A stretch of DNA of 60,000 nt, taken from Schmidtea polychroa (taxonomy: Eukaryota). The translations under genes were made by a program, and so were the position numbers. The notes under the pieces were generated by a model. The model searched no databases. It was given only the letters and a program-made list of their open reading frames with translations, and was not told the origin of the DNA. Position 1 is the stretch's first letter. The number at the start of each line of letters is the position of its first letter. Below, piece by piece: positions 18,901 to 21,900 of this stretch. The DNA lies in contig CM097885.1 in assembly GCA_044892525.1 (NCBI GenBank), forward strand, positions 23,066,001 through 23,126,000. The letters are read 5' to 3'.

Positions 18901-21900
18901 TATTCTTTACCTTTTGACATTTTTTCTAACTACTAAAAACAAAATCAATACAAACAAAATTAATTAATTAATTAACATTTTAATTTCTGAGATAATGTTC
19001 TCTACATAGTGATTATAGTCTAAAGTTTTTATTCCAAGTAATACAACCTTTCCGCTTGAAAATACATTAACACAAACTGGATTATACTTTTGAAGACGTA
19101 AGGCAGGAAATATTTCCGGTTCAAACATACATTTAGCTTTATGTTGTAATTCGTATAAATTTATAAATTTACCGATATCAGCAGTTACTGTAATGGACTG
19201 AATTTGTAAATCTTGTATCTTATATTTCAAATCAACTAATTTAAGAGTTGCTTGCATCCCATTATCCGACATCTACCCGACTTGAAAAATATAATTGGAT
19301 ACTTCCCACTTCTATCCACAACTTGTTGGGGTTTACCTAATGGGAATTTCATGTTTTTGACTAAACACTTACCTTTATAATTAATGTTGCTCAATAATAA
19401 TGAAGTCATGTAATAAAATTTAAATAATTTTTATATACTTATAATAATAAATTTAAACAAATATAAACAATAATATTAATGAAATGAGATTAATTAAGAT
19501 GGAATTAAGAAATGATGCCGTTTATCAAATTGTAGGTCCCAGTGGTAGTGGAAAAACTTTGTTTGTAAATTATTACAATCGAATATGTTCAAATCAAAAT
19601 TTAATAAAATATACTGGCATAAGGGAGCTGATGACGAGCATGGTATGACACAAGATCAGTTTTGTAAATTAAAAATGAATATAATGAAGGGATTTGATAA
19701 AAATTGGTCATCTAGATTACATCAAGGTGATGCTATAATTATTGATGATTTATATCAGGAAGCAAATAAAGAGAAAGATTTTAATAATTTATTTACAAAA
19801 ACCAGTAGACATATCGGAGTAACGGTTATTTTTATAACACAAAATTTATTTCATCAAGGCGGAAGTCATCGAACGCGTAATTTGAATGTACAATATTTAG
19901 TTATTTTCAAAAATCCTCGAGACGCAACTATAATTGATTTTCTCGCAAGACAGGCTTATCCTAATAATAGAAGATATTTAATTGAATCCTTCCAAGATGC
20001 AACAAAGATAGCACATGGGTATTTATTTTTCGATTTTACTCAACAATGTCCAGATGATTTACGTGTTAGAACAGATATTTTCAATGAAAAAGGTGTTACG
20101 ATTTATAAACAAAAATGAAATACATTATTATTATTTAAAAATGTCATTTAAAAAAGTTATAGTTCAACGTGAAAAAGTTACAAAGCACAAAGAAAACAAA
20201 AGAAATACTAAACGGAAAGAAAAAACTATAAATAAGACTAAAAAATCAATGAAAAAGAAGAGTTGGATTAAATTATAAACAAATTAATTAATAAAATACA
20301 TCATTAACAATGAAATTACAACGTAGCTTACCATATTTTAACGCCTTGCTAAAGGCTCCAAATAATAAAAGGATGAGTATATTACAAGCTTTTCCATCAT
20401 TTGTTATTGATGATTTACTCGAAGCTATTGTTAACATAGTTCGTGGTAATGTAAATATTAGTAAAGCTAAAAGGTTTGTATTAAAAAGACATAAGAAATC
20501 TCTTTTATCATTAGTTAACACAAAAAATCGAAATCTAATGAGAAAAATAATGTATAAACAACAAGGCGGATTTTTAGGTACATTAATTCCAATTGTATTA
20601 TCGGCTATAAGCACAATTTCGTCATTAAATTCTTAAAATATAATATCATAATGGGTGCTAAGAATTCATTACCGGATAAACATAATTTAGATTTAAATAT
20701 ATTAACATCATGTTGTAATAATGAAGGAAACATTTTCCAAAAAGGTCAAATCAAAGAAGAAAATATTAGAGAAAAAACTCAAAACGATTTGGACAAACCC
20801 GAAAGATCCAGATGGTTTTGGTGGTGTAGAAAAACTTGCAAAAAGAGTAAATAAATCAAAGAAAGAAACTCAAAAATGTTTATCTAATCAATTAGCCTAC
20901 AGTCTAAATAAACCAATATTAAAAAGATTCCCCACGAGATCTTATAAAACATTTGGTGTTAATGATTTATGGCAAATGGATTTAATGGAAATGATTCCAT
21001 TTTCAAAAATTAATAAAGGATACAAATATATTTTGACATGTATTGATATATTTAGTAGATACGCTCGTGCTATCCCAACAAAATCTAAATCAGCTAATGA
21101 AAGAGCTGATGCATTAAAAACATTATTTGCTGACGGACAGCCTCGTAATTTACAAATAGATTTGGGTAAAATTATAAATTAAATAATTTTAATTAATTTT
21201 AAATTTAGGTAAAGAATTTTATAATAGCAAAGTTAAAGAAATTATCAAAGGAATAAATCATTACTCAGTATTTTCACAATATAAAGCAGCGCATGTGGAA
21301 AGATTCAATCGTACTTTAAGAGATCGTTTGAAAAAATATTTTGTATATCAAGGCAATAAAACGTGGATAAATAGATTGTCGAAAATTAACAAAAGCTTTA
21401 GGATCAAGGAATCAAACTTATAATGAAAAAGACTTTGTTGGTGTGAAAATTCCAAAAATATTTAAAATTCATCAACAAATGTTTATTTATTCTAATATCA
21501 TTGAACCAATAAATTTTGGTGATGTAAGAGTTCCTCTATTAAAATCGATATGGATTAAAAGATATGAACAGGGAGAGGTTGTACAGTTAGAAATAAAGAA
21601 CCCAATGTACCTTCCAATTTCATCTTCATCTATAAACAACATTGAAATTAATATTCGCAACGATAGTGGAAAATTAGTTAAATTTTCAAAAGACACCAAA
21701 ACACATTTAACACTACATTTTCGTAAAATAAATGAATAATCCTGATATTGTAAACTTTTATAGTAATAGTCAATCTGGTGGAGATTTACCATATTTTGTT
21801 GGTAAACAATATGGAACAGGTTGGTTAAAAACAATAGGTCGATTTGCTTTACCAATTCTTAGACGCATAGGTAATTTTGGTATGAAAACTGCACATGATG

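Follow-up and report, generated by a model that had tools for sequence, protein, structure and literature searches.

Virus-Encoded TBPs and a Polinton of Schmidtea polychroa

Among viruses that encode a TATA-binding protein (TBP), the herpesviruses offer some of the closest described systems: ORF24 of KSHV (Kaposi's sarcoma-associated herpesvirus), BcRF1 of Epstein-Barr virus (EBV) and UL87 of human cytomegalovirus (HCMV) are mimics that combine a viral TBP fold with a variant TATA box at late genes and a more polar DNA face (PMC12529657). Here we describe a TBP-like gene carried by a Polinton in a 60,000-nucleotide stretch of Schmidtea polychroa DNA (assembly GCA_044892525.1, contig CM097885.1, positions 23,066,001 to 23,126,000 of the forward strand), which in its full length is called the window and belongs to an AT-rich genome of 781 Mb with four large contigs. 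The encoded protein is probably the late-gene TBP of one Polinton lineage, which would read a box of its own, (C/T/G)ATAAAC, and recruit host TFIIB and RNA polymerase II (Pol II). By analogy, the herpesvirus mimics are the best model of how it may work, although it is not one of them.

ORF24 is a multidomain protein of 752 amino acids (aa) that keeps four intercalating phenylalanines (Phe) and lacks the TFIIB-contact glutamates. It contacts Pol II on its own, through an N-terminal domain, works together with five other proteins of the virus, which it requires, and reads a TATTWAA box (PMC12529657). The Polinton protein, in contrast, is a bare single-domain core of 148 aa that retains the glutamates, and in structure it matches BcRF1 only weakly (E 1.2e-3). 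The TBP-like proteins of nucleocytoplasmic large DNA viruses (NCLDV) are also virus-encoded TBP folds, and viral matches were returned by Foldseek from E 1e-8 at 8-17% identity. Viral TBPs are described as having lost eukaryotic N-lobe signatures; the majority lack the glutamates, the first of which is present in only ~40%, and are accompanied by a TFIIB of the virus (PMC7221094). In the Polinton family, by contrast, the glutamates are near-invariant, and a Pfam screen of 31 neighbouring open reading frames (ORFs) and those of the window, in elements that are incomplete, gave no match to a TFIIB family. The sole NCLDV-like TBP in our tree (L011) groups with cellular TBPs.

Cellular TBPs (PF00352), comprising TBP and TBP-related factors (TRF) as well as archaeal TBP, share with the Polinton protein a full-length two-lobed saddle, three Phe, the proline of the C-lobe, one asparagine and both TFIIB glutamates. 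The Polinton form differs in its length (148 aa vs ~180), in the loss of the first Phe, in a polar DNA face, in N-lobe helices that are absent (148 aa) or have an acidic H2 (167 aa), and in forming a separate branch. Of the traits of a canonical eukaryotic TBP it thus has the TFIIB glutamates; four Phe, a basic H2 patch and branching with host TBP/TRF are not found.

The element itself resembles other Polintons, Mavericks and adintoviruses (Polintoviricetes) in its terminal inverted repeats (TIRs), 6-bp target site duplication (TSD), family B DNA polymerase (polB), rve integrase, A32 ATPase, adenain protease and capsid-like genes. A TBP is not one of the eight genes that make up the vertebrate Maverick core (PMC8097293), in keeping with the first-pass annotation of this DNA, which had placed TBP outside the standard Polinton core. 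A gene label "TBP" for related elements, perhaps for the present family, does appear in the Fig. 5 legend of PMC8502044 (2021) and in the legends of its preprint; the one supplementary file of that paper searched gave no TBP match. A word search of the main texts of PMC8097293, PMC10748475, PMC11131425, PMC11071308 and 10.64898/2026.06.19.733378 found neither TBP nor TATA. No description of a Polinton promoter motif was found in the literature searched; Repbase, subscription papers, figures and bioRxiv supplements may hold earlier annotation.

The TBP Gene of the Window

18964..19409, minus strand: Polinton TBP-like gene, with a frameshift at ~19240-19260; uninterrupted copies encode 148 aa

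Both TBP half-repeats quoted in the first-pass annotation are present here, in two frames separated by the frameshift, and the C-terminal frame alone matches Pfam TBP at E 9e-13. L005, a natural copy from another place in the genome, is uninterrupted, encodes 148 aa with 5 mismatches to the window copy, and supplied the protein for all downstream analyses. It matches Pfam TBP (PF00352) at E 1e-14 (54.4 bits vs a cut-off of 22.9), the profile covering the C-lobe only, and TBPs of the PDB at E 2e-12; the ESM Atlas returned TBP clusters only, the recognition being below the Atlas threshold.

The gene lies, as had been claimed, within a TSD-bounded Polinton (9711-31611), which starts with AGTAGT, ends with ACTATC and has the 6-bp duplication CACTAA on both sides. 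Polinton ends follow an AG...CT rule, to which these ends conform, the right one being slightly decayed. The gene set is also that of a Polinton, with Pfam matches to pPolB (E 5.5e-4), rve integrase (2e-8), ATPase (0.01) and protease (4e-5); under the curated Pfam cut-offs only integrase and protease pass in this decayed copy, and the polB of relatives reaches E 1e-21. The window TBP copy and its Polinton are dead: besides the TBP gene, the ATPase, integrase, minor capsid and polB genes are all broken.

A TBP Fold with a Remodelled N-Lobe

The AlphaFold2 (AF2) model of the 148-aa protein, with a pLDDT (predicted local distance difference test) of 94.6, has the two-lobed saddle of the TBP fold family and can be aligned with human TBP over 148 of 148 residues (Z 13.2, root-mean-square deviation 2.6 Å; the first non-TBP structure scores Z 6.7). 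The absence of such a fold was named in the first-pass annotation as grounds for giving up the assignment; the fold is predicted over the whole length. In the model the C-lobe is complete, and the N-lobe keeps its strands and lacks both helices, H1 and H2. The first-pass annotation had rightly described the first repeat as shortened: the Phe of the segment equivalent to YNPKRF has no aromatic counterpart in 47/47 aligned rows (register inferred from internal symmetry). The loss of both helices is the bigger change, which that annotation missed, and the N-lobe anchor spacings are 21 and 20 residues vs 31 and 33 in cellular TBP.

A subgroup with proteins of 167-170 aa (L058, L060, L062, L064-L066, L069-L071, L075, L111), called the 167-aa or long form here, retains both helices, with an acidic H2 whose net charge is -1 to -5 vs +2 to +5 in cellular TBP. 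Near its TBP genes lie, among others, ORFs of phospholipase A2-like and C2H2 zinc-finger type, joined in L065 by one of KilA-N type. The basic patch of H2 is used by TFIIA, TAF1, Mot1 and Brf1 (PMC7221094). Because H2 is absent or acidic, both the short and the 167-aa form would be without the surface for these four factors.

Residues were counted in 47 rows, namely 46 loci and P0001, which repeats L005; yeast equivalents were taken from Table 1 of PMC12529657 and from known motifs. Three of the four intercalating Phe are kept (F42 in 47/47, F101 and F117 in 46/47 each), and the first position is occupied by K, P, S, A, R or V in 47/47 rows, in a register inferred from lobe symmetry, the profile alignment of the short N-lobe having low confidence (probability 26-47). 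The C-lobe stirrup carries E97 (45/47) and E99 (47/47), which correspond to the TFIIB-contact glutamates of PMC7221094, and P102 (43/47) and N8 (46/47) are likewise conserved. The strands facing DNA hold polar changes specific to the family, that is N10 (46/47), R48 (47/47), S72 (44/47), R105 (46/47) and N115 (46/47); M50 and T74 are also family-specific at DNA-facing positions.

These features allow for a repressor, a viral TBP that sits on the boxes without productive initiation and keeps the structural genes silent while the element is integrated. A lost TFIIA-binding helix together with one lost Phe could yield such a non-productive complex, but the TFIIB glutamates are kept in 45/47 and 47/47 rows, and the structural genes showed no further core promoter element by which they could be driven once repression ends. 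We regard a repressor as very improbable.

A TATA-Like Box before Packaging and Structural Genes

In a set of upstream regions dereplicated at a protein identity of 85%, (C/T/G)ATAAAC was found before 76/79 packaging and structural genes vs 5/52 TBP and polB genes, the first base having been widened to C/T/G after the upstream sequences were inspected. A variant TATA box is thus confined to late genes, "late" being assigned by gene type. By gene, the box precedes 18/18 ATPase, 16/16 core ORF, 16/17 minor capsid, 12/12 major capsid, 10/10 PX and 4/6 protease genes; before TBP it occurs in 5/48 (2.4 in shuffles) and before polB in 0/4. An unbiased count gave ATAAAC as the top 6-mer, in 76/79 regions vs 9.2 in shuffles, and no box was found on the antisense strand upstream of the structural genes. 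The metagenome loci alone give 61/64 vs 3/46, and 21/21 vs 1/11 come from the long-TBP subgroup, in which the sequenced capsids share only 26% identity with that of the window.

The box mostly lies 33-45 bases before the ATG of ATPase, core and capsid genes, its seventh base is C in 88/108 sites, and 19 variants start with C and 8 with G. A poly(A) signal (AATAAA) was considered and rejected, an A preceding the motif in 1/87 cases. Where the box falls within the 3' end of the ATPase gene, 11/11 copies use TAT AAA (expected fraction 0.47 each). The TBP genes show another pattern: a TATA of host type, TATAWA(A/T/G), followed by the initiator-like word TCA(C/G/T)T occurs in 12/48 of them (0.32 in shuffles) and in 0/79 structural genes. 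CCAATCA motifs, seen by eye and uncounted, precede TBP in L023, L024, L047, L048 and L052 and fit host-type early promoters.

The late block of the window holds 8 boxes vs 2.5 expected. Its features are as follows.

19410..19483: intergenic stretch that separates the divergent TBP and ATPase genes
19429..19437, minus strand: host-type TATA-like run, 20-28 bases before the TBP ATG; candidate early promoter with tight spacing
19462..19468, plus strand: TATAAAC box before the packaging ATPase
19484..20118, plus strand: packaging ATPase of A32-like type, with a frameshift close to the start in the window copy
20104..20110, plus strand: TATAAAC box within the ATPase 3' end (codons Y-K-Q)
20274..20280, plus strand: TATAAAC box before the core/pX-like ORF
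20310..20636, plus strand: core-protein-like ORF with adenovirus pX-like C-terminus; extra box at 20553
20675..20681, plus strand: GATAAAC box before the integrase
20721..21411, plus strand: rve integrase, broken and truncated
21380..21739, plus strand: putative minor capsid gene, 3' part, labelled by position and likeness to relatives, with no family match; box at 21631
21732..22133, plus strand: small conserved ORF preceding the capsid gene (working label PX); box at 22088
22130..23356, plus strand: uninterrupted ORF of 408 aa for a putative major capsid protein, labelled by position, size and motifs; no Pfam match
23385..23731, plus strand: adenain-like protease, with a box at 23385

Across loci the capsid-like ORFs keep their size and place, with no family match in Pfam.

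On a TATA box, the N-lobe of TBP lies over the part that includes position 7. The host consensus YWTAWADN excludes C at this position, where the second Phe pair intercalates (PMC1935006). Since the N-lobe is remodelled and C7 lies outside the host consensus, the changed part of the protein would face the part of the box that differs. For host TBP to accept C:G at position 7, a Hoogsteen pair is required (PMC4402545).

The first-pass annotation had also suggested that the protein may be a TBP decoy. Host TBP would then read the TATAAAC boxes itself, and the viral protein would act as a sink for TFIIB (or Brf) or block host TATA boxes, shifting Pol II to the element. Such a role would suit the TFIIB-contact glutamates, which are the best-kept host-like surface, as well as the loss of one intercalating Phe, and crystals show host TBP on a C(-25) box. 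A pure decoy, however, has no need of the invariant family-specific residues R48, M50, N10 and N115 on the DNA-facing side; the 19 C-starting and 8 G-starting variants and the fixed C7 fall outside the host consensus, and the genes that necessarily use host TBP first have ordinary TATA boxes instead. A decoy is unlikely, and it is the less likely of the two functions that the first-pass annotation proposed.

The box may instead be read by another factor of the element, a C2H2 zinc-finger protein or the product of an unnamed ORF, with the TBP as an adaptor or acting elsewhere (Pol III, replication ends). The long-TBP subgroup does have several unnamed ORFs beside one of C2H2 zinc-finger type, and the late complexes of herpesviruses depend on several virus-encoded proteins (PMC12529657). 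Yet the box, which is TATA-like and TATA-positioned, does not differ between the subgroups, and no transcription-factor-like gene other than TBP was found in the two of them, the unnamed ORFs having been screened with Pfam only; we hold a separate box reader to be doubtful.

Family Spread, Linkage, Selection and Phylogeny

A search of the genome with the TBP gene gave 3680 candidates, of which all of the best 150 matched, many with open frames of ~155 codons; a search with a distant ATPase gave at least 150 scored matches. For linkage, 22 regions of this genome were sampled from the TBP hit lists. The gene is carried by 21/22, each time head-to-head with the ATPase, and no query matched in L091, which had been chosen from a weak match to canonical TBP. 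The copies of this genome form six subfamilies of 52-69% identity, and dN/dS was 0.08-0.33 in the 47 between-subfamily pairs, out of 50, for which it could be computed, dS approaching saturation in the majority. The 32 metagenome pairs comprise 27 with values of 0.08-0.39, two near-identical ones with 0.72 and 0.89, and three that are saturated. By these sequence comparisons, the dN/dS check proposed in the first-pass annotation among them, the TBP gene family is under purifying selection.

Protein searches returned 31 relatives and, at E <=1e-10, 119 clusters that consist almost wholly of short proteins of the family type. Of 69 loci from a metagenome scan, many of them from few datasets, 64 were counted as family, and L076-L080 (26-28% identity) were left out. 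A Polinton core gene is present at 34/64 of the loci and on 18/20 contigs of at least 4 kb, the other two having an accessory ORF in common with the window element. In IMG/VR, the TBP alignment retrieved a single locus, an NCLDV-like contig with an ordinary TBP of 182 aa, and the ATPase and capsid alignments gave no matches.

The first-pass annotation had stressed that the gene sits head-to-head with the ATPase. This is true locally, with 74 bases between the TBP ATG (19409) and the first ATPase ATG (19484; the family-type start is 19499). As a general trait it was rejected: both genes occur at 23 metagenome loci, and TBP lies upstream of the ATPase and on its strand in 19 of these but head-to-head with it in 2, so that the order is local to this genome. 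A further argument had been a second copy near 45 kb.

45177..45471, plus strand: second TBP-family copy, an isolated decayed remnant

The remnant does contain GCKPPLK and is 72% identical in nucleotides over 314 bp, but it has stops and frameshifts of its own, and no other Polinton gene was found around it between 27.6 and 55.1 kb. Alone it is weak evidence for a family, for which the evidence is strong genome-wide; the weight that had been laid on this copy and on the head-to-head order was not justified.

The tree has 70 rows, with long branches and an uncertain root, and a branch of support 100/99 divides it into 26 rows of cellular type, among them all six host paralogues, and 44 of family type. 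Of the latter, 32 come from loci, in some cases on short contigs that lack a core gene, and 12 have no context. The copies are thus Polinton-linked and stand outside the host TBP paralogues, which agrees with the first-pass view of them. The host genome has a conventional TBP and five divergent full-length paralogues (L081-L086, 34-66% identity to canonical TBP), two of which form a separate long branch. The Polinton side of the tree also holds twelve more distant TBP-like proteins of 150-190 aa without genomic context (P0118, P0128, P0132, P0133, P0140, P0141, P0143, P0145, P0146, P0161, P0164, P0173), which may mark further virus lineages.

That the gene is a captured host TBP pseudogene, a passenger with no role for the element, could be read from the broken state of both the window copy and the 45 kb copy. 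It is refuted by the tree, dN/dS and metagenome linkage: many copies are uninterrupted, the six subfamilies diverge under low dN/dS, the branch lies apart from all six host paralogues, and the link to Polintons recurs in unrelated metagenomes. We give the passenger explanation next to no credence. The gene is probably a long-standing one of a single Polinton lineage, and it belongs to a family rather than being a one-off capture.

Proposed Mechanism and Points Against It

The observed basis consists of the fold, residue conservation, selection, linkage and box distribution, from which the following course may be proposed. The TBP gene would be transcribed early by host TBP/TFIID from an ordinary TATA and initiator promoter. 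The viral TBP would then bind the minor groove of (C/T/G)ATAAAC in front of ATPase, core, capsid and protease genes, and often of the integrase gene, and its DNA face, which is rebuilt and more polar, would favour C at position 7. Host TFIIB and Pol II would be recruited via the conserved acidic stirrup of the C-lobe, and without the basic N-lobe helix the protein would escape control by TFIIA, TAF1, BTAF1/Mot1 and Brf1. The idea, already voiced in the first-pass annotation, that the protein may redirect Pol II to late and structural promoters thus gains indirect support from the variant TATA box, the conserved DNA face and the TFIIB glutamates. Somewhat less firmly, we lean toward a broad animal Polinton lineage with a herpes-like early-to-late cascade, which would use a single bare TBP of 148 aa, its own box and host TFIIB, and would have shed the N-lobe surface via a 167-aa stage with an acidic helix.

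Several points weigh against a late-gene TBP of this kind. All functional links are correlations, and the widening of the first base, the near-saturated dS and the few source datasets mentioned above count here as well. The integrase, a non-structural gene, carries the box in 5/7 cases, and the TATA and initiator pattern is absent from 36/48 TBP genes. Two TBP-less Polinton fragments, with 0 and 1 boxes vs 2.2 and 1.4 expected, speak for the pairing, but this control consists of two partial contigs of one metagenome-assembled genome (MAG), beyond which a TBP might lie. In L114, which may have a TBP or lack one, the ATPase is 70% identical to the clade and has TATAAAA upstream instead of the box. 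The first intercalating Phe is missing, and with one of four lost, DNA bending may be weaker or different. The leucine position at the putative C:G clash, which we take to be that of yeast L114, is still I, V or L in the family; relief of a C7 clash by a changed leucine thus found no support, and no simple structural reason for C7 was found. It is this leucine that is said to clash with the C:G pair, and a TATAAAC-type box can be bound by host TBP (1qn3; PMC4402545).

Other Features of the Window

The remaining parts of the element, into which two further elements are nested, are these.

9711..18385: left TIR (9711-10236 and 17841-18385), interrupted by a nested element
25324..27642, plus strand: protein-primed polB with an endonuclease-VII-like domain, broken, ~490 residues fewer than in L020
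30929..31611: right TIR; TSD CACTAA at 9705-9710 and 31612-31617

The nested element of 7.6 kb (10237-17840) has AGTAGT...ACTACT ends, the 6-bp TSD GTCATA, very long inverted arms and no Polinton genes, and is probably a non-autonomous Polinton inserted in the left TIR. A Penelope-like retroelement (reverse transcriptase and GIY-YIG) with inverted repeats of 601 nt lies between polB and the right TIR (27986-30948). The Polinton splits a decayed transposase gene on the minus strand, whose halves at 9370-9822 and 31610-32226 are taken to be hAT-like from their motifs. Other Polinton remnants (capsid, protease, PX) are found at 55128-57004, with two boxes on the coding strand, and at 5496-7425.

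The divergent polB with its endonuclease-VII-like domain is shared by the TBP-bearing elements of the window, L010, L020, L058 and L065, and in L112, which is TBP-less, polB is of the archetypal PF03175 type and lacks that domain; TBP and box may go with a single class of polymerase. L111-L114 are Polinton fragments inside bacterial MAG records, probably as eukaryotic contamination.

Implications for Polinton Biology

No animal Polinton virion has been seen (10.64898/2026.06.19.733378). A dedicated factor and a defined 7-bp box would make the timing of capsid genes in animal Polintons a testable question, and would argue for a staged, virus-like cycle. The protein is a natural TBP core without the surface common to TFIIA, TAF1, Mot1 and Brf1 and, unlike the viral TBPs surveyed in PMC7221094, seems from its residues to be built for host TFIIB. 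The box can also serve as a marker when structural genes are annotated in these elements. If the proposal is true, the protein would prefer exactly the base that the host consensus excludes, and protein and box would be an orthogonal TBP-TATA pair of natural origin and the first transcription programme of elements that have yet to be seen as virions.

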